Source of the DNA: an uncultured Candidatus Saccharibacteria bacterium
GTDB lineage: Bacteria > Patescibacteriota > Minisyncoccia > UBA6257 > GWB1-50-10
Reading direction: 5' to 3'
Assembly (NCBI GenBank): GCA_964356375.1
Contig: CAYHGT010000001.1
Location: 9,221 to 73,220 of the forward strand
DNA: 64,000 nt
This document shows positions 1,602-52,467 of the stretch, one piece after another. The number at the start of each line of letters is the position of its first letter. Positions within the stretch are counted from its first letter, which is position 1. A program made the position numbers and the translations under genes. The notes beneath the pieces were generated by a model that had not been told where the DNA came from, searched no databases, and saw nothing but the letters and a program-made list of their open reading frames with translations.

Positions 1602-1988
1602 ATGGCAGACATGAAAAAACTATTGATAGTGGAAGATGAGCCGTTGCTTGCGAATCTTTTAAAACAGCGCTTTGAAAAGGAGGGTATAGAGGTAATTTTG
1701 GCGCGTGATGGCGAGGAGGCATTGAATTTTCTTCGCACTACTAGACCAGATCTCATTTTGCTGGATATTATTTTGCCGAAAATCTCCGGCTTTGAACTTT
1801 TAGAAACCATGTCCGCAGACCCGAATATTGAAAAGGCGCCAGTCATTATAACCTCAAACCTCGGTCAGGATTCGGATGTAAAGCGCGGACAGTCGCTTGG
1901 CGTGGTTGAGTACTTTGTAAAGGCAAAAATCTCAATAGAGGATCTTGTGGAACACGTGAAAAACGTGTTAGAGGGTAATAAGGTTTAG
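1602..1988 (+). CDS. Stand-alone response-regulator receiver (CheY-like) domain protein
   Basis: 128 aa. LLIVEDEPLL...DLILLDIILPKISGFELL: acidic pocket, phospho-acceptor Asp context and a conserved Lys region typical of REC domains. There is no output domain. Confidence 0.75.
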   Translation: MADMKKLLIVEDEPLLANLLKQRFEKEGIEVILARDGEEALNFLRTTRPDLILLDIILPKISGFELLETMSADPNIEKAPVIITSNLGQDSDVKRGQSLGVVEYFVKAKISIEDLVEHVKNVLEGNKV

Positions 1989-2006
1989 GGTTCAATTATC
2001 CACATG

Positions 2007-2062
2007 TACGGTATACGGTATACGGTATACGGTATACGGTATATGGTATACTGTATACAGTA
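2007..2062. repeat. Tandem heptanucleotide repeat (TACGGTA)x5 followed by three degenerate units (TATGGTA, TACTGTA, TACAGTA), 52 bp upstream of the major pilin start
   Basis: Counted directly: eight contiguous 7-bp units at 2007-2062. The unit contains the palindrome GTATAC. Confidence 0.9.
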
Positions 2063-2113
2063 TTTCATTATAGGAATGAAAGGTCGGTAATAATAGAAAA
2101 AGAAATATTAAAT

Positions 2114-2686
2114 ATGAATAATTTAAAGAAAGGATTTACACTTATTGAATTGCTTATCGTTATCGCAATTCTCGCAATCTTGTCAGTTGCAGTTGTGTTG
2201 GTTTTGAATCCTGCGGAACTTATCAAACAGGCCCGTGATTCTACCCGCATCTCCGACCTGTCAGCAATCAATAGCGCAATCGCATTGTATTTGGTGGATG
2301 TAGCTACCCCGTATTTTGGTAGTGCAACCACCGCGTGCGTGACTACGTCGACTGCTACATTTGCCACAACGACAACAGCGCTCAATCCATGGGCTTCTGG
2401 CGCCGCGCAGTTTGTGAATACGTCATCATCGGTAACTGGGGGCGGTTGGGTTACTGTTAATTTTGGAGCTATTTCTGCGGGCTCGCCAATTGCAAAGCTT
2501 CCTATTGACCCAGTGAACTCCGCGGCATATTGGTATGGTTACGCGTGTAACGGTTTGAACTACAAACTTGCAACCGTATTTGAAAGCACAAAGTATTCAA
2601 GTGCAACAACTGGATATATGAGAAATTCATATGACGGTGGCACGAGCAATGGTTTCTACGAAGTTGGTAACAGCCTTGTCCTCTAA
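2114..2686 (+). CDS. Type IV (major) pilin with a class III signal peptide
   Basis: N-terminus MNNLKKG|FTLIELLIVIAILAILSVAVV: G-1, F+1, E+5 prepilin cleavage/methylation motif. 190 aa, Ser/Thr-rich C-terminal half. Followed by a strong terminator. Confidence 0.8.
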   Translation: MNNLKKGFTLIELLIVIAILAILSVAVVLVLNPAELIKQARDSTRISDLSAINSAIALYLVDVATPYFGSATTACVTTSTATFATTTTALNPWASGAAQFVNTSSSVTGGGWVTVNFGAISAGSPIAKLPIDPVNSAAYWYGYACNGLNYKLATVFESTKYSSATTGYMRNSYDGGTSNGFYEVGNSLVL

Positions 2687-2715
2687 CTAGAGAATCAATT
2701 TAGCAGTTTTAAAAA

Positions 2716-2745
2716 CCCCCCCCGTTTCGAGGGGGATTTTTTTAT
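2716..2745 (+). terminator. Rho-independent terminator after the major pilin
   Basis: CCCCCCCGTTTCGAGGGGG hairpin followed by TTTTTTT. Confidence 0.75.
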
Positions 2746-2806
2746 GACGAGCTAGTAAGCGATAGTGTGCTAAAATGATTAAAGGAAAAGCGGTCATTTT
2801 TTATCA

Positions 2807-4522
2807 ATGATAAATCTACCCCCTGAACGACTTAGAGAATTGCTTTTGAAAGCGGGTATTACAACTCCCGATGTGTTTGCATCTATGTTGGATGAAGCAA
2901 AGCGCAAACAGCAGAATGTGAACGATGTGCTCATCTCACAAGGAATCATCAACAAGGAATACTTGCTGATACTTATCGCACAAAATCTCGGTGTGGAGCG
3001 TGTGAATCTTGGCGTGGTAAAGGTGGACGAGGTGGCACTCAATCTCATTCCAGAGGATGTGGCTCGCCGTAAAAAAATTATTGTATTTGGTAAAGAACTT
3101 GACGGGAAATATAAGGTTGCGATGGATGATCCAAGCGATTTGGAAACGATTGATTACTTGAATTTGAAACTTAGCGGGCAGGTGAAGCCGTACCTTGCAA
3201 CCGAAGAAGATTTGAATCGCGGATTCGTGCTTTATGGAGAAAGATTGACACAGGATTTCCAGCAGATTATTGAGACGAGTGTGCGTGAGTCACTTCGCTC
3301 AAAAGCGCGTGGCGATGCAGAGAAGGATGCGCAAGACCTTCCGATTGTCGCAATTGTGGACAATCTTCTCTCCTACGCAATTTCTTCACGCGCATCCGAT
3401 GCGCATTTTGAGGCGTTGGATGATGTGGTACTGGTTCGCTTTCGTATTGATGGCGTGTTACACGAAATAATCAGAATGCCGAAAGAAATTCAAGCAGCGG
3501 TCGTGGCGCGTATTAAAATTCTCTCAAACCTCCGCGTGGACGAACACACGCATCCACAAGATGGTCGTTTTCGTCACAAGATGGGGAGCACGGCGGTAGA
3601 CATCCGCGTATCTATTATTCCAACATTTTATGGCGAGAAGATTGTTATGCGTCTTTTGACCGCTGCGCAAAAACCGCTTTCGCTTGCGGACCTTGGTATT
3701 TATGAGGACGATATTAAATTGTTGGAAAACGCAATCAAGAAAACATACGGCATGGTGCTTGCTGCGGGTCCTACCGGTTCTGGTAAAACGACTACATTGT
3801 ATTCACTTTTGAATATGATGAATAAGCCGGATGTGAATATTATCACGATTGAAGACCCGATTGAATATGATATGCGGTATGTGAACCAGATGCAGGTGAA
3901 TGTAGCTGCTGGTATTACATTTGCATCCGGGCTTCGTTCTATCCTGCGCCAAGATCCAAATGTGATTATGGTGGGTGAAATCCGTGATGCGGAAACCGCG
4001 AACATTGCGGTGCAAGCGGCGCTCACGGGACACGTCGTGCTTTCAAGCTTGCACACGAACGATGCGCCGACCGCAATCCCGCGCTTTATTGATATGGGCG
4101 TACCTCCGTTTCTCGTGTCTGCGGTTTTGAATACCGTTATTGCACAACGTCTTGTGAGAAAAATTCACGTGGAGTGCATTGAATCATATGCCCCACCAAC
4201 CGCATTTCTTGGGGCAATTAAGCATGAGCTGGAGCAGAGCGGTATTGCAGAAGAAAGTGTGAAGGTTCCCAAAACATTTTATCGCGGGAGAGGGTGCGCG
4301 GCATGCGGGCATACTGGATACTTGGGACGACTTGGTATTTATGAGGTGTTAAATATTACGGAAGAGGTGCGTAAACTCATAATTAGCTCTGATTTTAACC
4401 TTGATACATTGCGCCATTTGGCGCGTAGCGAGGGAATGTCCACTATGTTTGAGGACGGTCTCCGCAAGGTTGAGCGTGGCGTTACTACAATTGAAGAGGT
4501 CCTACGCGTTATTAGGGAATAA
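2807..4522 (+). CDS. pilB: Type IV pilus assembly ATPase PilB (GspE family)
   Basis: 571 aa. N-terminal GspE_N-like region, Walker A GPTGSGKTT, Asp/His boxes, and a C-terminal tetracysteine (CIESY...CAACGHTGY). Confidence 0.9.
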   Translation: MINLPPERLRELLLKAGITTPDVFASMLDEAKRKQQNVNDVLISQGIINKEYLLILIAQNLGVERVNLGVVKVDEVALNLIPEDVARRKKIIVFGKELDGKYKVAMDDPSDLETIDYLNLKLSGQVKPYLATEEDLNRGFVLYGERLTQDFQQIIETSVRESLRSKARGDAEKDAQDLPIVAIVDNLLSYAISSRASDAHFEALDDVVLVRFRIDGVLHEIIRMPKEIQAAVVARIKILSNLRVDEHTHPQDGRFRHKMGSTAVDIRVSIIPTFYGEKIVMRLLTAAQKPLSLADLGIYEDDIKLLENAIKKTYGMVLAAGPTGSGKTTTLYSLLNMMNKPDVNIITIEDPIEYDMRYVNQMQVNVAAGITFASGLRSILRQDPNVIMVGEIRDAETANIAVQAALTGHVVLSSLHTNDAPTAIPRFIDMGVPPFLVSAVLNTVIAQRLVRKIHVECIESYAPPTAFLGAIKHELEQSGIAEESVKVPKTFYRGRGCAACGHTGYLGRLGIYEVLNITEEVRKLIISSDFNLDTLRHLARSEGMSTMFEDGLRKVERGVTTIEEVLRVIRE

Positions 4523-4574
4523 AGAGTTTGTCTAAAATTCGAAGCTGAAAGTGAACGAATTTTAGCTACAAAGT

Positions 4575-4680
4575 CTTTACCGAGCACTCAGCATCAAAAA
4601 ATGACATTTTTCGTCCGTTTTCAAGCACGAGCGATTTTTCAAATAATATGAACAGTCGCGTTGAGTGCTCGGTGCTTGAA
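4575..4680. promoter_or_regulatory. Conserved inverted-repeat element, copy 1, in the pilB-pilC intergenic region: CTTTACCGAGCACTCA ... TGAGTGCTCGGTGCTTGAAT
   Basis: Perfect 12-bp inverted repeat ACCGAGCACTCA (4579-4590) / TGAGTGCTCGGT (4663-4674) with a 72-nt spacer. The arms share CTTTACCGAGCAC and GTGCTCGGTGCTYGAWT with copy 2 at 8745-8855. Confidence 0.45.
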
Positions 4681-4736
4681 TGTATGCTAAAATTTATATG
4701 CATGAGTAATCGCAAAAAAATTTTAATACATTCAGC

Positions 4737-5936
4737 ATGAAATTTAGATACATTGCATCACAGGCGGATGGGCGAGTGGTAGAGGGCGACATTGACGTAC
4801 AAAATGTACAAGACGTTTTGTCGTTTTTGGCAAAAAATAATTTAAAGCCAGTCAGTGTAAAATCAAGCGAAGAAGAGAAAGGCGGACTTTTCAAGGGTTC
4901 CATTACGATTACCGACGAAATCTTCCTTACAAAGTATTTAGCGCTAATGCTCCGAATTGGTACGGGTCTCTTGGAGGCAATCAACATTCTTATTGCTGAT
5001 TTCAAAAAGCCCGCAATTCGCGACCTCCTTTTTGAGGTGCGCGCCACACTTGAACAGGGGCAGCCATTTTATTCAGCATTTGCAAAACATCCGAAGGTTT
5101 TTGATGCGGTCTATATAAACCTTGTGCGTGCGGGCGAAGAATCGGGAAATTTAGATAAAATACTCACCGACCTCACAGAGTCGCTTTCCAAGAAAAAAGA
5201 TTTGCAGGATACGGTGCGCGGCGCTTTGATCTATCCGATAATTCTCTTCATCGGTTCGTTCGGCATTCTCTTTTTTCTTGTAATGTTTGCGCTCCCGAAG
5301 GTCGCGAATGTGTTTATGGAGGGAGGGTTCAAAACGCCACCTTTTTCACAAGTAGTGTTTACAGTTGGATTATTTTTCAACAACTATGGATTTTATATTA
5401 TCGGATTTTTTGGACTGCTCGTGGTAACAGCAATCATTCTTCGCGCGCGAGTACCCCTGTTTAGAAAATTTTTGTCCAATGTTTTTGTGAACCTCCCACT
5501 TATAAGCGGAGTATTGAAAAAAATGGCGCTACAGCGATTTGCATCAACATTGGCCGCGCTTATAAAAGCTGGTATGCCACTTACGAGAGCGCTGGATATT
5601 ACAGCTGACGCGGTTGCGCACGCGGAATTACGCGATGCGCTTATAAACATTTCCAAAGAAGGTCTTGCAAAGGGACTCACAATCGGCGAGGCGTTTCGTC
5701 GCGAATCAGCATTCCCGTCCACCATCACAAATCTCGTGGCAATTTCAGAAAAAGCGGGACACTTGGACGAAGTGCTAACAACCGTGAGCGAATTTTATAC
5801 GAAGGAAATTGACGCATCGGTGAAAGAGCTTGTTTCCTTTTTGGAGCCGGCGCTCCTTGTCTTCATCGGTGCTATTGTTGCAGTAATTGCGCTCGCCATC
5901 ATTGTTCCTATTTATCAACTCACTACCCAATTCTAA
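4737..5936 (+). CDS. pilC: Type IV pilus inner-membrane platform protein PilC (GspF family)
   Basis: 399 aa. Two T2SSF-like repeats and three TM segments; downstream of pilB. Confidence 0.9.
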   Translation: MKFRYIASQADGRVVEGDIDVQNVQDVLSFLAKNNLKPVSVKSSEEEKGGLFKGSITITDEIFLTKYLALMLRIGTGLLEAINILIADFKKPAIRDLLFEVRATLEQGQPFYSAFAKHPKVFDAVYINLVRAGEESGNLDKILTDLTESLSKKKDLQDTVRGALIYPIILFIGSFGILFFLVMFALPKVANVFMEGGFKTPPFSQVVFTVGLFFNNYGFYIIGFFGLLVVTAIILRARVPLFRKFLSNVFVNLPLISGVLKKMALQRFASTLAALIKAGMPLTRALDITADAVAHAELRDALINISKEGLAKGLTIGEAFRRESAFPSTITNLVAISEKAGHLDEVLTTVSEFYTKEIDASVKELVSFLEPALLVFIGAIVAVIALAIIVPIYQLTTQF

Positions 5937-5970
5937 AGAATGGAATAATTGAATATTAAAGATTGAAGGA

Positions 5971-6382
5971 TTGAACATTATGAAGATAGAACGATTTGAA
6001 GAATTACCAATTTGGAAAGATGCGCGAATCATTTCTTCGGAAGTATATAAAAAAACAAGGTCATTTAAGGATTTTTCGTTGCGAGATCAGATGAGGAGAG
6101 CAGCCGTTTCCATTGTTTCAAACATTGCCGAAGGGTTTGAGCGTTGGTCAAATAAAGAATTTATTCAATTTCTCTATATTGCGAAAGGATCGGTCGGTGA
6201 ATTGCGTGCGCAATTGTATGTTGCATATGACGCTGAAATTTTTAAGTAACGAGCACTTGATTGCGATGATTAAGCAATGCGAAGAGATTTCGGGTGGAAT
6301 AAGTAAATTTGCTAATTATTTGAGAAAATCACCGATTATCAAGGAAAGATATAATACAAAAGCAAGCTTATTGAACAATTGA
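5971..6382 (+). pseudogene. Four-helix-bundle protein (23S rRNA intervening-sequence-protein family) interrupted by a 1-nt frameshift in a T5 run
   Basis: ORF 5971-6249 (...IAEGFERWSNKEFIQFLYIAKGSVGELRAQLYVAYDAEIFK*) continues in the +1 frame (LSNEHLIAMIKQCEEISGGISKFANYLRKS...). Removing one T from the T5 run at 6239-6243 gives a continuous protein of about 136 aa with family-typical motifs. Confidence 0.5.
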
Positions 6383-6403
6383 AAAATTAAATGATTTAAA
6401 ATT

Positions 6404-7531
6404 ATGAAAAAGAAATTATTCAATCCTTCAATTATTCAATCCTTCAATTTTCGGGGTGGTTTTACAATGCTTGAGCTTGTGATTGTGATAGCGATTACGG
6501 CAGTTCTTTCAACGGTAGGTTTTGTATCGCTTAGCGGGTATCGTGGAAAACAAAATCTTAATAAAACAATGGATGAGTTAGTTGCTGTAATTGTTGGTAC
6601 GCAAAAGCGCTCAATTTCACAGGACACGGGGAAACAATGGAACATAAGATTTTCAAATACCGCGAGCTCTGGAAGCCAATACATAATTTTTTCCGGCTCG
6701 GCATACAGCACGAGTTCAATAGATAGAATATATGGACTTGGACGCGGTGTGCAATTTGCAGAGCCATATTTAAATAGTGCATTTGATGCATTTTTTACGC
6801 CGATAACAGGAACACTCCCTTCAAAGAAAATCATCTCGCTCGTTACAGGTAAAAAAGACGGTCTGGTTGGCGATATTATTTTAAATACCGCGGGTCGCGT
6901 AATTACGCGACTTGAAAGCGGTCTTGTCGGATATTGGCATTTTGATGAAAATGCATCTTCAACGGCACACGATTCGGCGGGTATGGATAATGATGCAATT
7001 CTTTCCGATGGACCTGTGTGGAAGGAGCATAAAAATTGCAGAGAAGGAAATTGCCTAAGCTTTAAGGGCGGAAGCGACCAGGCGGCTACCGCGTCCATAG
7101 ATATCAACGGCAAGCCGGATTTTACAATCAGTGATTGGCAATATATCACAAGCTTATCCTCGGGTAGCTGGGTATTGAATTATACATTTGGAGAAACCTC
7201 ATTTTACTCATATCACGGCGGACAGTTTAGAGTTGTGGACGGGCCATTGGAGTGCCAAGATTCCGGATTCGGCTCAATATCTTCCAGCGAATATCTTAAT
7301 AAGTGGACACACACAGTGTTTGTAAAAACTGGCGATGTTATAAATGTATATGTTAATGGAGTGTTTCGCGCGTTCTGTGTTTCCAAAAACGGAGTGCTGG
7401 CTAATCCGATATTTAAAATAGGAAATATTTTTGTAGGAAGAAACATGATAGGCATTGTTGATGAGGTCCGTATCTACAACCGCGCCCTTTCTGCGACCGA
7501 GATTTTGAATATGTATAATGACTTTAAGTAA
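6404..7531 (+). CDS. Type IV pilin-like protein with a C-terminal LamG/concanavalin-A-like lectin domain (paralog 1)
   Basis: Prepilin signal MKKKLFNPSIIQSFNFRGG|FTMLELVIVIAI. C-terminal LVGYWHFDE...CREGNC...DEVRIYNRALSATEILNMY matches Laminin_G_3-type motifs. Confidence 0.8.
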   Translation: MKKKLFNPSIIQSFNFRGGFTMLELVIVIAITAVLSTVGFVSLSGYRGKQNLNKTMDELVAVIVGTQKRSISQDTGKQWNIRFSNTASSGSQYIIFSGSAYSTSSIDRIYGLGRGVQFAEPYLNSAFDAFFTPITGTLPSKKIISLVTGKKDGLVGDIILNTAGRVITRLESGLVGYWHFDENASSTAHDSAGMDNDAILSDGPVWKEHKNCREGNCLSFKGGSDQAATASIDINGKPDFTISDWQYITSLSSGSWVLNYTFGETSFYSYHGGQFRVVDGPLECQDSGFGSISSSEYLNKWTHTVFVKTGDVINVYVNGVFRAFCVSKNGVLANPIFKIGNIFVGRNMIGIVDEVRIYNRALSATEILNMYNDFK

Positions 7532-7544
7532 GTTATTGAAAATT

Positions 7545-8693
7545 ATGAAAAAGAAATTATTCAATCCTTCAATTATTCAATCCTTCAATTTTCGGGGTGG
7601 TTTTACAATGCTTGAGCTTGTGATTGTGATTGCTATCATGGCTGTTCTTTCTACGGTCGGATTTGTATCGCTTAGCGGGTTTCGTGGTAAACAAAATCTT
7701 AAGAAAACCACGGACGAACTGGTGGCGGCAATCGTGGGAACGCAGAAACGCTCAATCTCACAAGATGCGGGAAGTAGGTGGAATGTACGCTTTTCAAATA
7801 CCACAAGTTCAGGAAGTCAATATATTGTGTTTTCGGGTACGAGTTATGCGACAAGCGCGATTGATAAAATATACGGCCTGAATCGCAATATTCAGTTTTC
7901 AGAACCATATTCCGGCAGTACATCTAATGCGTTTTTTGCTCCATTTACGGGCACGCTCCCCTCAAAAAAAATAATTTCAATGGTAACAGGTCGGCAGGAC
8001 GGATTTGTGGGGGACATTATTATGAATACAGCGGGGCTCGTGACTGGGCGCAATGAGAGTGGTCTTGTGGGATATTGGCATTTGGATGAAAACACATCCA
8101 CAACTGCGTATGACGCGTCTGGTATGGGGAATACTGGCGCTCTTGTGGGCACTTCTACGTGGCAGACGGGAATGAGTTGCGTATCAGGAAGTTGCTTGAG
8201 TTTTAATGGAAGTGGACAATATATAGATTCCGGGGCGAATTCCATTTTGGGTACTAAGCCTTTTACACTCACTGTGTGGATTAATACAAACAGTGTCGCG
8301 GGTTATAGTGGAGCAGTTTCAATTGGAACATCTGCGAGTGGTCAATCAGCATATATCGGAACCGTTGCGGTTGCACAGGTTGGCACGAGCAACTCTATTG
8401 GTGGTGGCTTCTATGGCGCAAATTATGGTTCGGGTATTACCACCACAGGTCAATGGGTTCACGTTGCCATGACATTTGCGGGCGGGTCAAATGGGGCTGC
8501 GATAATTTATGTAAATGGGCAAGTTCTTGTAAATACTACATACACACCGAATTTAGGAAGCGCGGTGAAAAGAATTGGCAGAATCGGGACCGACTCTACG
8601 TACGACTTTAACGGTTCAATTGATGAAGCTCGCATTTACAACCGCGCGCTTTCCGCGACTGAGATTTTGAATATGTATAATGACCTCAAATAA
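7545..8693 (+). CDS. Type IV pilin-like protein with a C-terminal LamG-like domain (paralog 2, tandem duplicate)
   Basis: The track ORF starts at 7518, but the in-frame ATG at 7545 reproduces the identical leader MKKKLFNPSIIQSFNFRGGFTMLELVIVIAI. The 93 bp 7539-7631 are identical to 6397-6489. C-terminus LVGYWHLDE...CVSGSC...DEARIYNRALSATEILNMY. Confidence 0.8.
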   Translation: MKKKLFNPSIIQSFNFRGGFTMLELVIVIAIMAVLSTVGFVSLSGFRGKQNLKKTTDELVAAIVGTQKRSISQDAGSRWNVRFSNTTSSGSQYIVFSGTSYATSAIDKIYGLNRNIQFSEPYSGSTSNAFFAPFTGTLPSKKIISMVTGRQDGFVGDIIMNTAGLVTGRNESGLVGYWHLDENTSTTAYDASGMGNTGALVGTSTWQTGMSCVSGSCLSFNGSGQYIDSGANSILGTKPFTLTVWINTNSVAGYSGAVSIGTSASGQSAYIGTVAVAQVGTSNSIGGGFYGANYGSGITTTGQWVHVAMTFAGGSNGAAIIYVNGQVLVNTTYTPNLGSAVKRIGRIGTDSTYDFNGSIDEARIYNRALSATEILNMYNDLK

Positions 8694-8744
8694 AGGCTTG
8701 GTGTAAATTTGTAAGATGAAATCGCGACAAATTTACGAACCAAA

Positions 8745-8855
8745 CTTTACCGAGCACATAAATTAACACGCAAAGCATTAATCAATTCTCTTATTTATTT
8801 CCGATGAAAAAGAAAAATTATAAACCAAAGTTTTCAATTTATGTGCTCGGTGCTC
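8745..8855. promoter_or_regulatory. Conserved inverted-repeat element, copy 2, spanning the promoter, RBS, start codon and first leader codons of the third pilin-LamG gene
   Basis: Perfect 15-bp inverted repeat ACCGAGCACATAAAT (8749-8763) / ATTTATGTGCTCGGT (8837-8851). The start codon at 8804 lies inside the loop. The flanks CTTTACCGAGCAC and GTGCTCGGTGCTCGATT match copy 1. Confidence 0.45.
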
Positions 8856-10168
8856 GATTCTTTAGCCACGCGCTTCGCGCGTGGAAAGAATCGGCAGGCC
8901 AGTCCCTCGTTGAAATTATTATCGGCCTCGCAATTGGCGCAATTTTGATAGGTGCGTCAGCGCTTGCAATCGCAGCGATGTTGAATTCAAACGTGACGAC
9001 ACAAAAATGGAAGGCGGCAACCGTGCTCTCACAAAGCTTATTAGATAATGCGCGTGCATACGGCTCTGTAAATTGGCAGAATTTGTACGGGCTTACAAAA
9101 ACGTCTAGTACACAATATTTTTTAAACGCTTCAGGAACCACATATAACGTAATTCAGGGGAAGGAGGGAATGGTTGATAATGATGTGACAAACGGCTTAG
9201 TGGGAGAGTGGAAATTTGATGAGGATGCGGGGACGACCAGCACGCTAACGTATGATGCGTCTGGCAATGGCAACAATGGAACACTTGTGGGTAGTCCTAT
9301 TAGAGCAACGTCTACATGTAAAATAGGAAATTGTTTGAAGTTTAATGGTGCGGACAATTATGTGAGCGTCACTAACTCCGCTACGGTAAAAAGCATTTCT
9401 ACTACTGGCACGATTGCGACATGGATTAATTTAACGGTTGCGCCAACAAGCACCAACCTGCAATTGATTGCCGATGTGGATGGCACAGCCAGTTGTACTG
9501 CGAGAGGTATGATATTTTATATTTCAGCTACGCAATTTAAATTTCAGTATGGTAGCGGTGGTGCTTGTCAGAATGCGAGTTCGGTTACCGTGCCAGCCAC
9601 GAATCAATGGTTTCATATAGTTGCGACGTGGGATGGTCTCGCTGGCGCCAAGATGTATGTGAATGGAACATCCGAGGGCAATAATGTTGCGGTGTCAAAT
9701 GTCAGCATTGCGCAAGCGTCCACTTATATTGCCAGTCAGGCGGGTACCACAAGTTTTATAAACGGTCTCGTTGACGATCTTCGTATCTACAATCGCGCGC
9801 TTTCGGCTGACGAAGTGAAACAACTCTACAACGCCAATATTTTCACGCGATATTTCTATGTGGAAAATACGTGTCGCACAAACGATGCATCAAGCTCCAT
9901 TTCCGGTGTTGCTTCCTGCGCGGGAGGTTCGGCTGACGACCCATCAACGCAGAAAGTAAGCGCGGTCTCGCAGTGGGCAGTCCTCGCTGGCACAAATCAG
10001 CTTTCTCTCGCTGATTATATAACGCGATGGAGAAACACAATTTTTCAGCAGAATGACTGGTCTGGTGGCGCAAGCGCAACGGGCACGTATACGAGTCCCA
10101 CAAACCTTTTTTCAACGTCGTCTAACGCAAACACAGCAGGCAAGTCAATTCGCATTCAAGGCCTGTAA
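8804..10168 (+). CDS. Type IV pilin-like protein with a LamG-like domain and an extra C-terminal region (paralog 3)
   Basis: Long leader then ESAG|QSLVEIIIGLAIGAIL (G-1, E+5). LVGEWKFDE...CKIGNC...DDLRIYNRALSADEVKQLY. 454 aa. Confidence 0.75.
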   Translation: MKKKNYKPKFSIYVLGARFFSHALRAWKESAGQSLVEIIIGLAIGAILIGASALAIAAMLNSNVTTQKWKAATVLSQSLLDNARAYGSVNWQNLYGLTKTSSTQYFLNASGTTYNVIQGKEGMVDNDVTNGLVGEWKFDEDAGTTSTLTYDASGNGNNGTLVGSPIRATSTCKIGNCLKFNGADNYVSVTNSATVKSISTTGTIATWINLTVAPTSTNLQLIADVDGTASCTARGMIFYISATQFKFQYGSGGACQNASSVTVPATNQWFHIVATWDGLAGAKMYVNGTSEGNNVAVSNVSIAQASTYIASQAGTTSFINGLVDDLRIYNRALSADEVKQLYNANIFTRYFYVENTCRTNDASSSISGVASCAGGSADDPSTQKVSAVSQWAVLAGTNQLSLADYITRWRNTIFQQNDWSGGASATGTYTSPTNLFSTSSNANTAGKSIRIQGL

Positions 10169-10278
10169 TAACCAGCGACTAACGACAAACAACTAGAAAC
10201 GGACGGACCTTTTTCCATTTTTTTCCTGTCGTGGGTTGTTAGTTGTGAGTTGTAGGTTGTGAGTTATAATAAAAGCAT

Positions 10279-10719
10279 ATGGTTGAAGTAAAGAATTTCA
10301 GTGAATCGCTTGATACTCATTTGGAGCGCCTAGGTGCACATATTAACGTAGAACGCGAAAGGCCAAGTTCCGAGCTTTCATCTCCGCGCGAGATTGTAAA
10401 AAACTCACTCAAAAATTATGCAGAAGACCTTACTCAGATTCGGAACGTGAGCGTGGCTGAGGCACAGGCTGGTCTTGTGTCGCAAGCAACGCCAGCGTCC
10501 GATATGTCTGGGTCCTTGCCAAACTACCTTTTTAACAGCGACATTTCTGAGGGTATTAAGCAGGAGGTAAAAGAGCTTGTGGATTTTGTATTTTCAGACA
10601 ATCTTGAATCCGCAATAAAAGAGTCGCGCAAACGTTCTGCGTTCGTGCAGGACGCATTTCACGATGCGCTGGTTGATAAGTTGATGCCAGAACTCGTAAA
10701 ACGAGGAATTTTCAAATAA
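10279..10719 (+). CDS. Hypothetical protein (146 aa), upstream partner of the large ATPase
   Basis: Intact ORF with good coding periodicity and no recognisable motif. It is separated from the next gene by 8 bp. Confidence 0.45.
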   Translation: MVEVKNFSESLDTHLERLGAHINVERERPSSELSSPREIVKNSLKNYAEDLTQIRNVSVAEAQAGLVSQATPASDMSGSLPNYLFNSDISEGIKQEVKELVDFVFSDNLESAIKESRKRSAFVQDAFHDALVDKLMPELVKRGIFK

Positions 10720-10727
10720 CCCACATA

Positions 10728-13079
10728 ATGGTTTATTTAATAATCTTTTTAACATTCTTTTTCACCTTTCTTTTTGGCATCCTCGCATTTTTTGTGTGGC
10801 GAAAAAAGATACGCGAATTATTGAAGAATAGTTTGGAAATGAAGCTTTTCCTTGTGCGTATGCCACACATGAATAAGGAGGGTAAGGATTTGAAAAAAGA
10901 AATAAGTATTTCCGAACAATTTTTGAGTGCCTTAGCATCGCTCGGGGGTCCCTTCGCGCTTGAAGTTGCCGTCCCACACATTGGCGAGGAAATCCATTTT
11001 TATGTGGCGGTTCCCGGCAAATCACGCGAATCAATCGTGCGTCAGATTCACGCATTGTGGGCTGATGCGAGTGTGAGCGAGGTAGACGACTACAATATTT
11101 TTAACTACACGGGCGTGGTCGCGGGTATTTCTATTCGCCAAAAAGAGAAATCAATCCTTCCAATTCGCACGTATCAGGAATTGGAGGCGGATTCGTTTTT
11201 GCCGGTACTTGGTGGATTTTCAAAAATAAACGAGGTGGGTGAGGGTTGCGCGATCCAGTATGTGGCGCGTCCCGCATCTTCCAAGGAGAAAAAAAATATT
11301 CAATATGCGGTAGACCTCTTGAAAAAAGGCGTAAAAGCAAAGGACGTATTTGGCGGTACATGGCTTGTGCTTAAAGATTTTGATGAAGCGCTTGGTGCGG
11401 GAAAGAAAAAAGAAACGGAAGAAAAAATAGTAGACGAGGGGGCCTTGGAAGCATTGAAGGCAAAAGTGGGAAAACAACTTTTTGATGTGAATGTGCGTGT
11501 AATTGCGTCAGCCCCGAGTCAGTTTCAAGCAGACGCTATTATTGATGGAGTAATTGCTGGCTTTTCGCAATTCTCGGCACCAGAGCGCAATGAATTTAAA
11601 ATTGTGAAGCCGAGAAAACTTCAGGATTTTATACATTCATTTTCATACCGCGACTTCAATGAGTCCGAAGCGATGTTAATGAATACGGAAGAATTTGCGA
11701 GTATCTTTCATTTTCCGACGCCGTTTACAGATGTGCCGAGAATTAAGTATCTGAAATCGCGCGAGGCGCCCCCGCCATCCGACCTACCAAAGGAGGGAAT
11801 CTTGCTTGGCGAAAGTATTTATAGAGGAACTCATATTCCTGTGCGGCTTACGCGCGAGGACAGGCGAAGACACTTGTATGTAATCGGTCAGACGGGTACT
11901 GGTAAGTCCGTATTTATCAATAATTTGTCGGGTCAGGATGTCGTTAATGGCGAAGGAGTATGTGTAATTGACCCGAATGGAGATCTTTTTGAAGATGTAC
12001 TGAGTCGTATTCCCAAAAACAGATTAAATGATGTGATTGTGTTTGACCCGAGTGATGTCTTGCATCCCTTGGGCATCAATATGCTGGAATATGATCTAAA
12101 CTTCCCGGAGCAGAAAACATTCCTCATAAATGAACTGATGCAGATTTTTGACACGCTCTATGACCTGAAGACCACGGGTGGTCCAATGTTTGAGCAGTAT
12201 ACGCGCAACGCTCTTCTTCTATTGATGGATGACCCCACAAACGGATTTACTATTCTTGAAATTCCGCGTGTGATGTCGGATGTAGAATTTCGAGAAGCGC
12301 TTCTTGCAAAATGCAAAAACGCAATTGCGAAAGATTTTTGGGAGAAGGAGGCGAATAAGGCGGGAGGGGATGCGTCACTTGCAAACATGGTTCCGTATAT
12401 TACGTCCAAGTTCAATACATTTATTGCAAATGATTTTATGCGCCCCATCGTCGCGCAATCAAAAAGTTCCATTGATTTTAGAAAAGTGATGGATGAGGGC
12501 AAGATTCTTTTGGTGAACCTCTCAAAGGGAAAGCTTGGCGAATTAAATGCGTCGTTACTCGGCATGATAATTGTGGGTAAGCTTACGATTGCCGCGTTCT
12601 CGCGCGCGGATATGGCACCCGAAAAGCGCAGGGATTTCTATCTCTATATGGATGAGTTCCAGAATTTCACAACACCAAGTATCTCCACGATTCTTTCTGA
12701 GGCAAGAAAATACCGACTATGTATTATTGCCGCACATCAGTTTATTGCGCAGTTAAAGGAGCCGATTCGTAATGCGATATTTGGCAATGTGGGCTCGCTT
12801 GTGGCATTTCGCGTAGGTGCTGATGACGCGGAGTTTTTGGAAAAGCAATTTACGCCCGTATTTTCCGAAAGCGATCTTATTAACATTGATAATTTAAATG
12901 CACACGTAAAAATTGCCATTAATAATCAGGTTTATCCGGCGTTCAATATGTTTGTACCGTTTCCGCCAAAGGGCGATAGAACCACTGTGGACGAGGCACA
13001 CGCGCTTTCCAGGCAGAAATATGGGCGCCCACGCGAAGACGTTGAGGCCGAAATTTATAAGCGAATAAAGGCGGTCTAA
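10728..13079 (+). CDS. Membrane-anchored P-loop ATPase of the FtsK/HerA/TraG-VirD4 (T4SS coupling-protein-like, DNA-translocase) superfamily
   Basis: 783 aa. N-terminal TM helix (LIIFLTFFFTFLFGILAFFVW). Walker A HLYVIGQTGTGKSVF. Walker-B-like FYLYMDEFQNF (the DEF motif seen in FtsK/TraG families). Downstream RLCIIAAHQ. Family assignment is from motifs only. Confidence 0.55.
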   Translation: MVYLIIFLTFFFTFLFGILAFFVWRKKIRELLKNSLEMKLFLVRMPHMNKEGKDLKKEISISEQFLSALASLGGPFALEVAVPHIGEEIHFYVAVPGKSRESIVRQIHALWADASVSEVDDYNIFNYTGVVAGISIRQKEKSILPIRTYQELEADSFLPVLGGFSKINEVGEGCAIQYVARPASSKEKKNIQYAVDLLKKGVKAKDVFGGTWLVLKDFDEALGAGKKKETEEKIVDEGALEALKAKVGKQLFDVNVRVIASAPSQFQADAIIDGVIAGFSQFSAPERNEFKIVKPRKLQDFIHSFSYRDFNESEAMLMNTEEFASIFHFPTPFTDVPRIKYLKSREAPPPSDLPKEGILLGESIYRGTHIPVRLTREDRRRHLYVIGQTGTGKSVFINNLSGQDVVNGEGVCVIDPNGDLFEDVLSRIPKNRLNDVIVFDPSDVLHPLGINMLEYDLNFPEQKTFLINELMQIFDTLYDLKTTGGPMFEQYTRNALLLLMDDPTNGFTILEIPRVMSDVEFREALLAKCKNAIAKDFWEKEANKAGGDASLANMVPYITSKFNTFIANDFMRPIVAQSKSSIDFRKVMDEGKILLVNLSKGKLGELNASLLGMIIVGKLTIAAFSRADMAPEKRRDFYLYMDEFQNFTTPSISTILSEARKYRLCIIAAHQFIAQLKEPIRNAIFGNVGSLVAFRVGADDAEFLEKQFTPVFSESDLINIDNLNAHVKIAINNQVYPAFNMFVPFPPKGDRTTVDEAHALSRQKYGRPREDVEAEIYKRIKAV

Positions 13080-13086
13080 TCCATTC

Positions 13087-13830
13087 ATGTCAAAACCGTA
13101 TCTATCTCTCATTATCCCTGTTCGCGACGAAGAGAAGACCGTGTTGCAGACACTTCTTTCCGTGGACTACGCGCTTTCTATTTCCGAATTTTCTTCGGAA
13201 GTAATTGTTGTGGATGATGGTTCACGCGATACCACGGCGCATATCGTACGGCAGTATGAAAAAGTTCTAAAACCTCTGAAATGCATTGAGGGTAAGAGTA
13301 AGAGGGGATTTGGTTCCGCAATTAAGGACGGTATGGCAGATGCAAATGGGAACGTGCAAATGATTCTCTATCCATCGTGCGTTGGATTTTTAGATAAACG
13401 GGAAGAAATTTTAACCGCATTTAAGGACGGGTATGATATTGTAGTTGGTTCGCGGAATATCGCCGTAGAACGGCTCTCGCTCTCATGTTCCGTGAAGCGC
13501 GCATTCAGAAAACTTGGCAATCGGCTTTTGTGTGGCAAATCGCTTTTCGGGGTATCCGATGTACGGTTTGGCGCGGTCTGTATGACGGAAGAAATGGCGG
13601 AGTGGCTCTCCTCGTTCTCGGAACTCACAAATAGCAACAACATTTTCTTTGAAATGTATATGCTTACTACCGCAAATGGTGGGCGAATCAAGGAGATTGC
13701 ATATGGAGAAAGCGATGAATGTGTCTGTGGAAAAGGCGCGTGGAACTGGATTCGCGCATATTTTCACTCGCTTAAGGTGAGGCATTTGGCAAAGAAGAAA
13801 AAGAAGCACGAAGGGCTTGTGTTGGAGTAA
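13087..13830 (+). CDS. Family 2 glycosyltransferase (dolichyl-phosphate-sugar-transferase-like)
   Basis: LSLIIPVRDEE...VIVVDDGSRD: GT-A fold DXD context. 247 aa. Confidence 0.7.
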   Translation: MSKPYLSLIIPVRDEEKTVLQTLLSVDYALSISEFSSEVIVVDDGSRDTTAHIVRQYEKVLKPLKCIEGKSKRGFGSAIKDGMADANGNVQMILYPSCVGFLDKREEILTAFKDGYDIVVGSRNIAVERLSLSCSVKRAFRKLGNRLLCGKSLFGVSDVRFGAVCMTEEMAEWLSSFSELTNSNNIFFEMYMLTTANGGRIKEIAYGESDECVCGKGAWNWIRAYFHSLKVRHLAKKKKKHEGLVLE

Positions 13831-13865: not shown

Positions 13866-14267
13866 ATGAAAATAGCGATTTGTGGGAGCATGGTATTTTC
13901 AAAGGAGATGATGGAAATCAAGGAAAAGCTGGAGCAATTTGGTCACGGAGTTATTCTTCCCGCAAATACGGAGAGGTATGCGAATGGGGGTAAGATGTTG
14001 GAAAGCAAATGGGCGAAGATTGAGGGCGACCTTATTAGGGATTATTACAATAAAATTAAAGAATGTGACGCGGTGCTCGTTGCGAATATAACTAAAAATG
14101 GTATAGAGAATTATGTGGGCGGGAATGCATTCATTGAATTAGCATTTGGACACGTACTTAATAAAAAGGTTTACTTGATTAACTCAGTCCCAGAAATGAA
14201 TTACAAAGATGAAATAGAAGCGATGGGGCCAGTGATACTTAATGGAGATTTGTCAAAAATTATATGA
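13866..14267 (+). CDS. Small nucleoside 2-deoxyribosyltransferase-like / DUF4406-like protein
   Basis: MKIAICGSMVFSKEM...ECDAVLVANI: a flavodoxin-like fold pattern typical of this family. Low-confidence motif call. Confidence 0.35.
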   Translation: MKIAICGSMVFSKEMMEIKEKLEQFGHGVILPANTERYANGGKMLESKWAKIEGDLIRDYYNKIKECDAVLVANITKNGIENYVGGNAFIELAFGHVLNKKVYLINSVPEMNYKDEIEAMGPVILNGDLSKII

Positions 14268-27078: not shown

Positions 27079-29088
27079 ATGGAATCACACGATTTTCCTA
27101 AAGAACAAATAATACCGCGAGAAGGTGGCAAATTGCCTAAAAAGCCAATTGATGTGGCAGTTGAAATTCTGGAGAGTTCGGAAATTTCCGCGGAACAAAA
27201 AAAGAAGCCAGAAAATTTTACCGAGTTTAAGCAAGAAGAAAATGTGGTAGTAGATAGATTTTTCAAAAAAACAGGAAAGGCGCTTTCCCGCGCAACACTC
27301 GCACTCTCACTTTTTATTGGTGCCTCATCCGCATATGGGCAGGATTTGGAAAAGGACGCTAAGAGCGATGAAGCAATTGTGCAAAAAGCAGAAGATGGTT
27401 CCACCTCAACTATTGAAAGATTAATGAGCCGAATGACTATAACGCTCGGTGGGACTCACGAACAACAAACCCCATTCAATGGCGAAACATTTAATGAGGT
27501 TTATAATTACAAACCACTCACTGAAACAAAATTTTATAATAAGCTTTCACAAGAGCAGTTTAGGGAGGTGGATGAGTCGTATTTTTCCGCCATAGCATCT
27601 AAAGACGCGGATGCATATTTTAGCACAATACGAGCGTTCAATGAGAGAACAGATAAAACACCTTTAGACGGTATGCAAAAAGCTTTGTTGTTACAGCGGA
27701 TAGGTGCAGAGCTTTATTTTAAATACAATGCCGACATGCTTGCGAGGGGTGAGCGCGTGAAAATATCCGAGAATGATATGCTCAATTCTTTAAAAAATAA
27801 GGATGATAAGAGTGGAATATGCGGTAATATTGCCACCTTTGTCACGAAGACGGCGAGGAGCTTGGGGTATGATGCGTGGCTTCAAAGCACAATGCATAAA
27901 AGTGGCGGACATGCGGTGACTGGCTTGGTTTTGGATAATGGGAACTTAGCTTTTTTTGACGGCAGTCATTTTTTGGACACGGATACAAAAAATTATAAAA
28001 AAGCATTGGGAGTGCTTGATAAGATGAACGAGAGAGTTTCTTTGTGGTCATACACACAACTTAGCGGAGGGAATATGGTGCAAGTAGACAGCGATGCAGG
28101 ATTGGTTACAAAGAAATTTGCCGGCATTCGCGCAACACAAAATGAATTAGATGCAATGCTTGGGGCTGGGGCAGTGAGGAAAAATCTTGGGGGTGTTGAT
28201 GTTGCCATCGGTCCCGAAGAGAAGACGCTCAGTCTTACTGACAATTATGTAAGTCTCACGTTTTCAAATTATGAAAATACGCCGATAGGTGGAATTGCAA
28301 ATCCATATCAAGCACTTCATTCGCTCAATTCGGTTCGCCTTGGCACCAATTTTGCAGGAGAGCGCCTTGGGTTGGATATGAACGTGTCCTATATGAATTT
28401 TTCGTTGGATGATATGCAAAAAGGGAAGGTTAATAATTATGATGCGGCTATTTTCCAAATATTTGGAAGTTATCTTGGTAAAAAACACGAATTAACAAAA
28501 GGTGAGCTCGGGACGCTGAGCGCTCAACTTGGCGCGACACTGCAAGCAGCAATCAATGTTCCATTTAGTAATGAAGATAAATCACAGCCAACACTGAATC
28601 GCGTTCGCGTTATGGGCGAGGTGGCTATGGGCGCAAAGGTAATCTATATTGATCCAAGTGAAGCCAATACATTCTATATTGAGGCGTCAACACGTGCAGA
28701 TGAAATAGCTAGTGATGTGGAGCGACAAAAACCAAGTTTAATAAGTGGCGCAAGTCGTTTCGGTGTAGGCGCAGAGATAAGGGCGCACAAAGGAATAGTG
28801 CTTGGATTTAACGCGGCAAAAACAAAAGAGGTTTGGGGCAACAGCACGAAAGCAAAATTACACATTAAGACGCCAACTATTGGCCTTGAGATTATCCACG
28901 AAGATGCAAAATCCAATGAGAAGCAGATCATTCCCTCAACAACAAAGACAAGCGCCAACCTTTCTTATAAGTGGAATCCAAAATACGAAGTGCGCGTGAC
29001 TGGATTTAAATCAAGCGAACAATACAAAGGTGCGAAATCTACAAATGAGGTTGGAGCAAACGTTACATTAGTGATGCGATTCTTTTAA
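27079..29088 (+). CDS. Large type-II-membrane / secreted protein with a transglutaminase-like Cys-His-Asp core and a beta-rich C-terminus ending in Phe
   Basis: 669 aa. A 65-aa N-terminal segment, then the hydrophobic anchor ALSRATLALSLFIGASSAYG. GICGNIATFV...GGHAVTGLV...FFDGSHF matches the order of the transglutaminase/papain-like catalytic triad. The C-terminus reads ...ANVTLVMRFF. Confidence 0.45.
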   Translation: MESHDFPKEQIIPREGGKLPKKPIDVAVEILESSEISAEQKKKPENFTEFKQEENVVVDRFFKKTGKALSRATLALSLFIGASSAYGQDLEKDAKSDEAIVQKAEDGSTSTIERLMSRMTITLGGTHEQQTPFNGETFNEVYNYKPLTETKFYNKLSQEQFREVDESYFSAIASKDADAYFSTIRAFNERTDKTPLDGMQKALLLQRIGAELYFKYNADMLARGERVKISENDMLNSLKNKDDKSGICGNIATFVTKTARSLGYDAWLQSTMHKSGGHAVTGLVLDNGNLAFFDGSHFLDTDTKNYKKALGVLDKMNERVSLWSYTQLSGGNMVQVDSDAGLVTKKFAGIRATQNELDAMLGAGAVRKNLGGVDVAIGPEEKTLSLTDNYVSLTFSNYENTPIGGIANPYQALHSLNSVRLGTNFAGERLGLDMNVSYMNFSLDDMQKGKVNNYDAAIFQIFGSYLGKKHELTKGELGTLSAQLGATLQAAINVPFSNEDKSQPTLNRVRVMGEVAMGAKVIYIDPSEANTFYIEASTRADEIASDVERQKPSLISGASRFGVGAEIRAHKGIVLGFNAAKTKEVWGNSTKAKLHIKTPTIGLEIIHEDAKSNEKQIIPSTTKTSANLSYKWNPKYEVRVTGFKSSEQYKGAKSTNEVGANVTLVMRFF

Positions 29089-29157
29089 GTAACCCAACCA
29101 ATCTGGTTTACGAAACGAGCTGTAGCGGTTCCCTTTTGATTGTAACTTTGCTCGTAG

Positions 29158-50993: not shown

Positions 50994-51644
50994 ATGGAGT
51001 TTATTAAGAAAGTACTTTGGGCGGGAATTACTATCGCAATTATTTATTTCGGTTATCTTGCGTACATTAATTGGTGGAGTGCTGGTGGTTCGTTTGACCA
51101 AAAAAAACAAGCGGCGGAACAGTATGTCGCGCAAAAAAAAGACGAGGTAGCGAAACAAGTAGGTGCAAAAGCACAAGAATATACGGGTGTGGTAGTTCAG
51201 CAAGCAAAAACCGGCGTACTTGATTATGTAAAGCAAAAAATCTCGGACGGGCTCGCAAATGTGGGCGAGGGTCTTATTCATTCGGCGGAGTCATTGCTCG
51301 GCGCAAGTTCAACCGAAATTTTGCGTCCCGTGACCGTAGCGACTGTTGCGGGGAATAATGCGGGTAGTGTATCCAAGCCCACGGGTTCGGGATTCATAAC
51401 ACCCGCACCGCCCGCAACCATTACGACTAAGGTGGGTGCGCCAATTATATTCTCAATAAATCGTGGCACCACGTATTCAATTGATTGGGGAGATAAGACG
51501 AGCGACAAGGGGAGTGTGGATGTTGAATCGGTAAAGCTTGTAAGTCATGCGTGGGCGAACGGAGGCGACTTCAGTATAAAAATATCTGTGCGAGGCGGTG
51601 GCGTATCACAGGATTACACATTCCCAATTCGCGTATACCCATAA
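50994..51644 (+). CDS. Hypothetical secreted/membrane-anchored protein
   Basis: N-terminal TM/signal (VLWAGITIAIIYFGYLAYINWW); no family motif recognised. Confidence 0.5.
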   Translation: MEFIKKVLWAGITIAIIYFGYLAYINWWSAGGSFDQKKQAAEQYVAQKKDEVAKQVGAKAQEYTGVVVQQAKTGVLDYVKQKISDGLANVGEGLIHSAESLLGASSTEILRPVTVATVAGNNAGSVSKPTGSGFITPAPPATITTKVGAPIIFSINRGTTYSIDWGDKTSDKGSVDVESVKLVSHAWANGGDFSIKISVRGGGVSQDYTFPIRVYP

Positions 51645-51650
51645 TCTTCC

Positions 51651-52451: not shown

Positions 52452-52467
52452 TTATGACCGATATGAT

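Follow-up and report, generated by a model that had tools for sequence, protein, structure and literature searches.

A Predicted Type IV Pilus Operon With Modular LamG Pilins Next to a Probably Separate VirD4-Like ATPase Module in a Patescibacterium

Gene Content of the Locus

We analyzed a stretch of 64,000 nucleotides (nt; positions 9,221 to 73,220 of contig CAYHGT010000001.1, assembly GCA_964356375.1), referred to as the window, for which an initial annotation made from the sequence had described a type IV pilus locus with three lectin-domain pilins, followed by a membrane-anchored ATPase. In Pfam and NCBIfam searches the main genes were found where that annotation had placed them, with family matches far beyond chance. 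The contig stems from Hainich groundwater (ENA ERZ1292616, Hain_H52_01um_R1_39), and the gene content as well as the homologues of the window assign it to the Patescibacteria, near Paceibacterota and Jorgensenbacteria. All genes of the locus are located on the plus strand. The first block comprises a gene for a CheY/PilH-like, receiver-only response regulator (1602–1988), which is the first gene of the pilus operon, the major pilin gene pilA (2114–2686), pilB (2807–4522), pilC (4737–5936), and three genes for pilin-type proteins with a LamG domain (gene 1, 6404–7531; gene 2, 7545–8693; gene 3, 8804–10168). The second block consists of an open reading frame (ORF) of 146 amino acids (aa) (10279–10719) and a gene for a 783-aa membrane-anchored ATPase of the VirD4/TrwB superfamily (10728–13079). 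Our data suggest that these are probably two separate units lying side by side, namely an operon for a lectin-tipped pilus (1602–10168) and a VirD4-like ATPase module (10279–13079).

The assignment of the first block as a type IV pilus gene cluster is supported by the pilin, T2SSE, and T2SSF matches. The 190-aa product of pilA has a class III signal peptide with G at position -1, F at +1, and E at +5 (KKG|FTLIE), followed by a hydrophobic helix, and it matches N_methyl (2e-9) and TIGR02532 (4e-9). The same type of prepilin N-terminus, G|FTxxE, is present in the products of genes 1 and 2. pilB encodes a PilB/GspE-family assembly ATPase (T2SSE, 7e-123; TIGR02538, 2e-160) with an N-terminal MshEN domain (9e-14), and pilC encodes a platform protein of the PilC/GspF type (T2SSF, 3.5e-49, in two stretches; GspF, 1.5e-84), whereby both proteins score under the NCBIfam equivalog cut-offs for PilB and GspF. 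The regulator matches Response_reg (1.5e-23). The MshEN-containing N-terminus of PilB (2807–2970) additionally shows a weak NCBIfam match to the MshE-type cyclic di-GMP-binding motif (E 0.006). Together with the CheY-like regulator, the MshEN domain hints at a control of the pilus by a nucleotide second messenger.

For the comparison with relatives, 80 genomic loci of ATPase relatives (L004–L083) were fetched and annotated with profiles built for this analysis; loci L087–L089 were recovered from distant members of the third-pilin family (about 41% identity). The gene order regulator-pilA-pilB-pilC is also present in L006, L029, L087, L088, L089, and L091. In agreement with the initial annotation, no match to PilD (Peptidase_A24), PilT, or PilM/N/O was found in the window plus 10 kb of contig on each side, with some of the window ORFs classed by eye as housekeeping genes without a Pfam run. 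In genomes of the Candidate Phyla Radiation (CPR), PilM/N/O and PilT are usually encoded at a separate locus (PMC6744442). If present, PilD, PilT, and PilM/N/O would have to be encoded elsewhere in the genome.

Modular Pilins With LamG Domains

All three proteins that had been proposed as prepilin-LamG fusions contain a LamG domain, with PF13385 (Laminin_G_3) scores of 56.3, 80.8, and 87.4 bits for genes 1, 2, and 3, respectively (5e-15, 1.5e-22, and 1.4e-24), compared to a cut-off of 27.6 bits. For genes 1 and 2, N_methyl was above its cut-off as well (5e-5 and 2e-5), so that both correspond to the modular pilin definition of Raynaud et al. 2021 (PMC8179133). Gene 1 encodes a modular minor pilin made up of a class III signal peptide, a GspH/FimT-like pilin domain (weak GspH match, 8.5e-6), and a C-terminal LamG domain, and gene 2 is its tandem paralogue. 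Judged by the identity with the start of gene 1, translation of gene 2 probably starts at 7545 and not at 7518.

For gene 3 the prepilin part of the proposal is less clear, as its N_methyl score of 18.2 bits stays under the Pfam cut-off of 21.2 bits. However, 50 homologues show at least 90% conservation of its G-Q-S-L-x-E motif (G|QSLVE in the window), behind which lies a hydrophobic helix, and the motif occurs in nine of nine orthologues from genomes. Among the third-protein homologues listed, about a third to 40% carry a precomputed N_methyl match. The family profile retrieved only LamG-type structures among its 60 best PDB matches, whereas the profile of the gene 1/2 family also matches pilins, so that the third protein's signal peptide is considered to be atypical. 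The gene 3 product is thus predicted to be pilin-like despite the sub-threshold N_methyl match. For each of the two pilin-LamG families, the one of genes 1 and 2 and the one of gene 3, the architecture recurs in over 100 homologous clusters from Paceibacterota and Jorgensenbacteria.

The products of genes 2 and 3 were modeled confidently with AlphaFold2 from alignments of 47 and 50 sequences. The gene 2 model, with a predicted local distance difference test (pLDDT) of 87 and a predicted template modeling score (pTM) of 0.84, consists of an alpha-1 helix (residues 22–72), a beta domain (79–171), and a beta-sandwich (174–382). In the gene 3 model (pLDDT 78), a helix (35–89) and strands (105–124) are followed by the LamG domain (132–342), four long strands (346–407), and a low-confidence tail, so that strands flank the LamG domain on both sides. 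Both models show a pilin fold, i.e., a long alpha-1 helix and a beta sheet, which is joined to a separate module, and the LamG part folds as a beta-sandwich jelly-roll. Foldseek searches with the gene 2 model yielded 5hon (template modeling score 0.76) and 7oa7, the PilC protein of Streptococcus sanguinis (E 2.8e-7). The LamG beta-sandwiches match the lectin-like HcN domains of clostridial neurotoxins, CBM40 sialic-acid-binding modules, pentraxins, carbohydrate-binding modules, and S. sanguinis PilC, whereby the structure searches with gene 3 were dominated by its LamG domain. With respect to fold as well as family, the lectin-fold claim of the initial annotation therefore stands.

The C-terminal tail of the third protein (residues 409–454, window 10028–10165) has a near-invariant QxDWSGG motif and a conserved GSIRIQGL end, and is modeled with an AlphaFold2 confidence of about 40. 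QxDWSGG is found in nine of nine orthologues of the fetched loci and, within the window, only in this tail. The tail could represent a putative interaction or strand-donation peptide. In locus L044 from a Jorgensenbacteria genome, the gene directly 3' of the ATPase gene (4198–7944) encodes a 1248-aa protein that is similar to LamG and carries a canonical class III signal peptide (RRGFTLIE).

Variability of the LamG Cores

The initial annotation had described conserved pilin stems and strongly diverged lectin domains for all three proteins. This holds true for genes 1 and 2, whose products are 54% identical overall: residues 1–180 are about 67–100% identical, the LamG core 17–40%, and the last 28 residues again 79%. 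The first 30 codons of the two genes share 98% nucleotide identity, and the remaining stem shows 67–87% protein identity. The description does not apply to gene 3, which has only the LamG domain in common with genes 1 and 2 (34% identity). Across the orthologues of both families, the mean pairwise identity is 21% for the central ~130 LamG residues compared to 43–64% for the helix, the pilin strands, and the LamG termini. The hypervariability is thus located in the LamG core, between the paralogues 1 and 2 as well as across both families. Such a fast-evolving LamG center on a conserved scaffold would be compatible with a changing ligand specificity, but is no proof of it.

Since the relatives each harbor a single gene from either family, the tandem pair of genes 1 and 2 represents a lineage-specific duplication. 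On the nucleotide level, a repeat starts 19 nt in front of each of the two start codons (6385–6684 compared to 7526–7825); the paralogues are 98% identical over the first 90 nt of the genes and 32–82% over the remainder. These near-identical 5' ends look like a putative result of either gene conversion or constraint.

Taken together, the first unit (1602–10168) would constitute a type IV pilus operon from a Patescibacterium of the Paceibacterota type, encoding a CheY-like regulator, the major pilin, PilB, PilC, and three modular minor pilins. The N-terminal alpha-1 helix would hold these minor pilins in the filament, and because of their bulk they would most probably be located at its tip, forming a priming or tip complex. 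There, we infer that the LamG/concanavalin A (ConA)-like beta-sandwich modules bind glycans of a host cell or surface, with the fast evolution of the binding part providing different specificities and the tandem duplicate an extra copy in this lineage. A lectin-tipped adhesive pilus, as already proposed by the initial annotation, is thereby supported by the families, the AlphaFold2 folds, and the structural matches, whereas glycan binding itself is the inferred step.

The VirD4-Like ATPase and Its Small Partner

The second unit starts with the 146-aa ORF, for which no match was obtained in Pfam, NCBIfam, or the PDB, even with a profile of 30 sequences. It codes for a soluble protein whose N-terminal half is variable, whereas its C-terminal helical motif (LDAFHDAL.DKL) is conserved. 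The family has 298 cluster representatives, the best 150 of which are 64–176 aa long and contain no extra domains or fusions. The protein is a constant partner of the ATPase: a homologue is encoded directly 5' of the ATPase gene in 61 of the 62 loci that extend at least 2.5 kb upstream, mostly with gaps of -4 to +60 nt and often with overlapping stop and start codons. A promoter-like sequence (TTGTGA-16-TATAAT, 10243–10270) ends 8 nt in front of the start codon of the ORF, and a TATAAT box is found 7–12 nt before the start of the ORF in the window as well as in L004, L006, L009, L012, L088, and L089. This position suggests that the module has a promoter of its own with a very short leader.

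The description of the following gene product as a membrane-anchored FtsK/HerA/TraG-VirD4-like ATPase was confirmed by Pfam matches above the cut-offs to PF10412 TrwB_AAD_bind (35.7 bits, cut-off 20.5), PF02534 T4SS-DNA_transf (30.4 bits, cut-off 20.1), PF12696 TraG-D_C (28.3 bits, cut-off 22), and DUF87 (26.8 bits), while no FtsK_SpoIIIE match was found in Pfam. None of the curated NCBIfam equivalogs (TraD, VirD4-like, CD1115) was reached, with 27–42 bits compared to cut-offs of 250–650 (at best 42 bits for a cut-off of 250), and with 23.2 bits against a cut-off of 700 (NF041017) the protein does not belong to the CedB family. Sequence matches in the PDB are TrwB (2e-8) and DotL (2e-4), whereby the P-loop region alone aligns with solved structures. 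The ATPase carries the Walker A motif GQTGTGKS and the Walker B motif YMDEF, of which GQTGTGKS and DEF are invariant in 12 homologues. A single N-terminal hydrophobic helix followed by basic residues, as read from the sequence, suggests that the bulk of the protein should be cytoplasmic. The N-terminal part includes a region of ~300 aa that is assigned to DUF8128 (PF26449) by precomputed Pfam matches only. The family has more than 7,800 homologues; the top 120 are all 54–100% identical, and every taxon-named one belongs to the Patescibacteria. Because its catalytic motifs are intact, the ATPase would most likely be an active hexameric translocase-type nucleoside triphosphatase. It is probably not specifically a pilus component. 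The second unit, which probably extends through the glycosyltransferase gene located downstream, would then represent a two-gene module that is found across the sampled Patescibacteria lineages and consists of a small helical protein and a membrane-anchored VirD4-like DUF8128 ATPase, preceded by a putative conserved -10 promoter element of its own.

In loci L069 (522–3354) and L058 (4–861), extra ATPase-like ORFs, apparently split or truncated paralogues, were observed a few kb 5' of the main ATPase gene. These would fit the number of about two copies per genome reported in the literature. A 2025 survey counts 5,713 VirD4-like homologues in 2,918 Patescibacteria genomes, of which 148 are located near virB4, and describes the coupling-protein homologue of S. 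epibionticum as non-essential and perhaps exapted, whereas the secretion system genes are essential (PMC12102498).

We regard it as rather unlikely that the ATPase is a true coupling protein of a type IV secretion system, which would feed the MPF-FATA-type VirB4 system present at another site in many Patescibacteria genomes, with the 146-aa protein as an adaptor or chaperone. The T4SS-DNA_transf, TrwB_AAD_bind, and TraG-D_C matches above the cut-offs would be in line with such a role, as would TrwB and DotL as the best solved relatives. DotL-type coupling proteins are known to work together with small adaptor proteins. Moreover, genes for coupling proteins often lie away from virB4 (PMC12102498). 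However, no VirB4-/VirB6-like gene and no relaxase gene was recognized in the window or among the recurrent neighbor clusters of the 80 loci, where no dedicated VirB4 or relaxase hidden Markov model (HMM) was run. Furthermore, the small fraction of homologues near virB4 and the different essentiality of the two gene sets in S. epibionticum, both taken from that survey, speak against a dedicated coupling function, and so do the scores far under every NCBIfam equivalog cut-off and the DUF8128 N-terminus with one transmembrane helix instead of the two of classical coupling proteins.

Relation Between the Pilus Operon and the ATPase Module

The initial annotation had suggested that the pilus and the coupling-protein-like ATPase could form a DNA uptake or transfer system, and had proposed a comparison of synteny. 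This comparison revealed that the ATPase usually has no pilus genes nearby and that the adjacency is limited to one clade. Among the 62 loci that reach 2.5 kb or more upstream of the ATPase gene, 6 have a LamG-pilin gene within 3.5 kb on that side, and among the 42 that reach 8 kb or more, 2 have pilB/pilC nearby. Conversely, L090 and L091 contain pilus-LamG genes without the ATPase. In L087–L089 the genes are arranged in the order regulator, pilA, pilB, pilC, LamG, LamG, small ORF, ATPase, TIM, an unnamed gene, RodA, YceG, and rpoB, and in L087 a PMT_2 gene on the opposite strand separates the pilins from the 146-aa/ATPase module. Since pilus genes and ATPase module are separable both ways, their adjacency is best explained as clade-level synteny, i.e., a gene order kept in one clade. 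The conserved block also includes TIM, RodA, YceG, and rpoB, and the adjacency within it is thus not evidence of a shared function. In addition, the ATPase and the 146-aa ORF form a pair of their own with their own -10 box. For these reasons, the suggestion of a DNA uptake or transfer system is not upheld by our data.

Some observations nevertheless fit a joint machine, in which the lectin pilus would contact cells or capture DNA and the ATPase with its partner would pump the DNA, comparable to the Ups pili and the Ced importer of Sulfolobales or to Com pili and ComFA. Pilins, 146-aa ORF, and ATPase are adjacent in every third-pilin-family locus that was recovered (L087–L089) as well as in L004, L006, and L029; the trio of L009 occurs without pilB/pilC; the ATPase shows weak NCBIfam matches to CedB and CedD; and it belongs to the coupling-protein superfamily, the members of which handle DNA in conjugation. 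On the other side, the rarity of pilus genes next to the module (2 of 42 loci), the core genes that are part of the conserved block, the module's own conserved -10 element, the separating gene in L087, and the CedB score of 23 bits compared to a cut-off of 700 all argue against it. Furthermore, transformation of Saccharibacteria depends on ComEC (PMC10633639), pilin mutants of TM7x retain normal competence (PMC11623550), and a coupling-protein homologue is reported as non-essential for epibiotic growth (PMC12102498). Thus, we consider a joint DNA uptake or transfer machine to be very unlikely.

A role of the module in cell division or the envelope, be it as a translocase like FtsK or as a motor tied to lipid-carrier-based glycosylation, appears highly improbable too: PMT_2, GtrA, and GT2 are its top neighbors, the glycosyltransferase gene of the window begins 7 nt past the ATPase stop codon, and RodA and YceG are close by, but the ATPase has no FtsK_SpoIIIE match, we know of no precedent for a coupling-protein-like ATPase in glycosylation, and the neighborhood may just reflect a conserved core gene order. 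In numbers, a divergent PMT_2 (GT-C) gene was observed upstream of the module in 26 loci, and GtrA and GT2 genes were observed downstream in 15 and 10 loci, respectively. In 41 of the 80 loci, at least one gene for PMT_2, GtrA, GT2, or GalT is present at a distance of 5 kb or less, and glycosylation genes are found near the module more often than pilB/pilC. Examples of such neighbors are located in L087 (10345–11841 and 14868–16325).

Several points weigh against two separate units with a lectin-tipped pilus as the first of them. On the side of the pilus, no PilD was found on the 84 kb of contig searched, and the third protein has a signal peptide with Q at +1 that stays under the Pfam threshold. 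Glycan binding, pilus localization, and prepilin processing of these proteins are predictions, and LamG domains can instead have a role as spacers or in protein binding. On the side of the separation, the evidence for a promoter of the module consists of a sequence pattern alone, and within one clade pilins, 146-aa ORF, and ATPase are always adjacent. The trio in L009 does not have pilB/pilC nearby, and in L044 the 1248-aa pilin-LamG protein directly follows the ATPase. One could therefore imagine that in a Jorgensenbacteria-like clade the third pilin, with its G|QSLVE signal, embedded LamG domain, and QxDWSGG tail, forms one unit with the 146-aa protein and the DUF8128 ATPase, which would couple a lectin-tipped pilus to the translocation of DNA or macromolecules and present a bacterial counterpart of the archaeal Ups-pilus/Ced system derived from an exapted coupling protein; at present, however, we regard this as a long shot.

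Comparison With Known Systems

A pilus with pilin-LamG proteins is a known kind of system, and the orphan coupling-protein homologue has already been published (PMC8179133, PMC9934059, PMC12102498). The closest characterized counterpart of the pilins is PilC of S. sanguinis (PDB 7OA7; PMC9934059), likewise a modular minor pilin with a ConA-like lectin module, which binds glycans and is displayed in a tip complex (PMC9934059). The sequence identity is just 12–13%. S. sanguinis PilC has an extra immunoglobulin-like module and a very short pilin moiety, whereas a complete GspH/FimT-like beta domain is present in the products of genes 1 and 2, and in gene 3 the LamG domain is positioned between beta strands and not at the C-terminus. 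The N_methyl plus PF13385 architecture is the same as in the modular pilins of Raynaud et al. 2021 (PMC8179133), where it is among the commonest architectures and several representative proteins originate from CPR genomes. That work is a catalogue, which does not describe the two families of the window, their conserved placement behind pilC, or the hypervariable LamG core.

Within the Patescibacteria, PilX1 (and PilX2) of Nanosynbacter lyticus TM7x are large minor pilins with a C-terminal lectin-like beta-jelly-roll domain, for which host-glycan binding has been proposed (PMC11623550). Compared by description, the domain of PilX1 is not recognizable by sequence, whereas the domains of the window are clear PF13385 members, and the lineage of PilX1 (Saccharibacteria) differs at phylum level from the one to which we assign the window. 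In Saccharibacteria, such lectin-like minor pilins are implicated in host binding (PMC11623550), and epibiotic growth requires type IV pili, while transformation needs ComEC (PMC10633639).

The ATPase resembles the orphan VirD4-like homologues of Patescibacteria, as described in PMC12102498, in its VirD4-type HMM matches, its chromosomal site, and the lack of a recognized virB4 or relaxase gene nearby. In contrast, a constant 146-aa partner, a DUF8128 N-terminus, and recurrent glycosylation neighbors are not described in the part of that work considered here. With TrwB/VirD4 (PDB 1E9R) the ATPase has in common the P-loop nucleoside triphosphatase core, the all-alpha-domain region, the TraG-D_C region, and an N-terminal membrane anchor. 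It differs by having one transmembrane helix instead of two, an extra domain of ~300 aa, and no recognized relaxase or mating-pair-formation context.

Our additions are modest and consist of two conserved pilin-LamG families with a hypervariable core, and of the finding that a small partner constantly accompanies the ATPase, behind a putative promoter element of its own. Neither of them alters current concepts. Patescibacteria live attached to other microbes, a way of life for which the few species in culture require type IV pili. In this context, minor pilins with a lectin module and a fast-evolving binding region would be plausible determinants of host choice, and the two families, with their conserved operon position, scaffold, and hypervariable core, provide concrete glycan-binding candidates in uncultivated Paceibacterota. 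For an ATPase that is among this group's most widespread unexplained ones, the pairing with a small helical partner, in front of which a -10 box is conserved in the window and six relatives, narrows what needs explaining.

Further Features of the Window

The hmmscan run proposed by the initial annotation bore out all suggested families except for the N_methyl match of the third protein and the assignment of the 133-aa ORF (13866–14267). The latter had been called nucleoside-deoxyribosyltransferase-like, but no Pfam or NCBIfam match was obtained for it even at permissive thresholds. In front of it, directly behind the ATPase gene, the predicted GT2 glycosyltransferase (13087–13830) was verified by its Glycos_transf_2 match (1.5e-15), next to a PgfS-like match (9e-13). 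TIM, RodA, YceG, and rpoB follow 3' of the 133-aa ORF in the same block, and rpoB/C, groEL, dnaK, two mreB genes, and small ORFs are also present on the contig.

The initial annotation had left out the response regulator gene (1602–1988) and a gene for a 92-aa four-helix-bundle protein of the 23S_rRNA_IVP family (5971–6249; PF05635, 1.3e-28) between pilC and the modular pilins. An Avd-like 23S_rRNA_IVP homologue is located between pilC and the LamG pilins also in L029 (6411–6794), and in three homologues (P0170, P0197, P0299) the domain calls indicate a fusion with the LamG pilin. The Avd-like gene gave rise to the idea of a diversity-generating retroelement acting on the LamG pilins. This idea was rejected, as neither a reverse transcriptase nor a template/variable repeat pair was found: no [YF]xDD motif occurs in any window ORF of more than 200 aa, and the sole repeats detected were the ends of the pilin-LamG paralogues. 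Since there is no reverse transcriptase in the window, the 23S_rRNA_IVP gene is not considered to be part of such an element.

With regard to putative regulatory sequences, the window contains only two tandem arrays with a period of 7 nt, both in promoter-like gaps. One is the heptamer array TACGGTA in front of pilA (2007–2063, not assigned to a strand), with about eight copies (Tandem Repeats Finder: period 7, 8.1 copies, 92% matches), which is absent from the regulator-pilA gap of the relatives; the other is (GTGAGTT)x5 in front of the 146-aa ORF (10231–10265), which encloses the promoter-like sequence. A 25-nt motif, with one copy at 1553–1577, is confined to the regions 5' of the regulator gene and the 146-aa ORF, compared to 0 matches expected by chance, and lies within imperfect inverted repeats. 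Neither the period-7 arrays nor the 25-nt motif is conserved in the relatives. The motif was considered as a shared operator that co-regulates both units; it is part of the heptamer arrays and not conserved there in the relatives, and was not used as evidence. Downstream of pilA, a consensus scan found a GC-rich hairpin with a T-run (2718–2735, plus strand), which resembles a terminator or attenuator by pattern match alone.

Apart from this locus, two adjacent large ORFs of 669 and 346 aa (27079–30198) are without a Pfam match. A second pilin-like ORF of 298 aa was observed in the region 50994–53307, with an N_methyl score of 21.8 bits and weak HpsC/ComGF-like matches. It is preceded by two single-pass membrane ORFs (216 and 266 aa) without a Pfam match, and the region might represent a small second pilus-related cluster.

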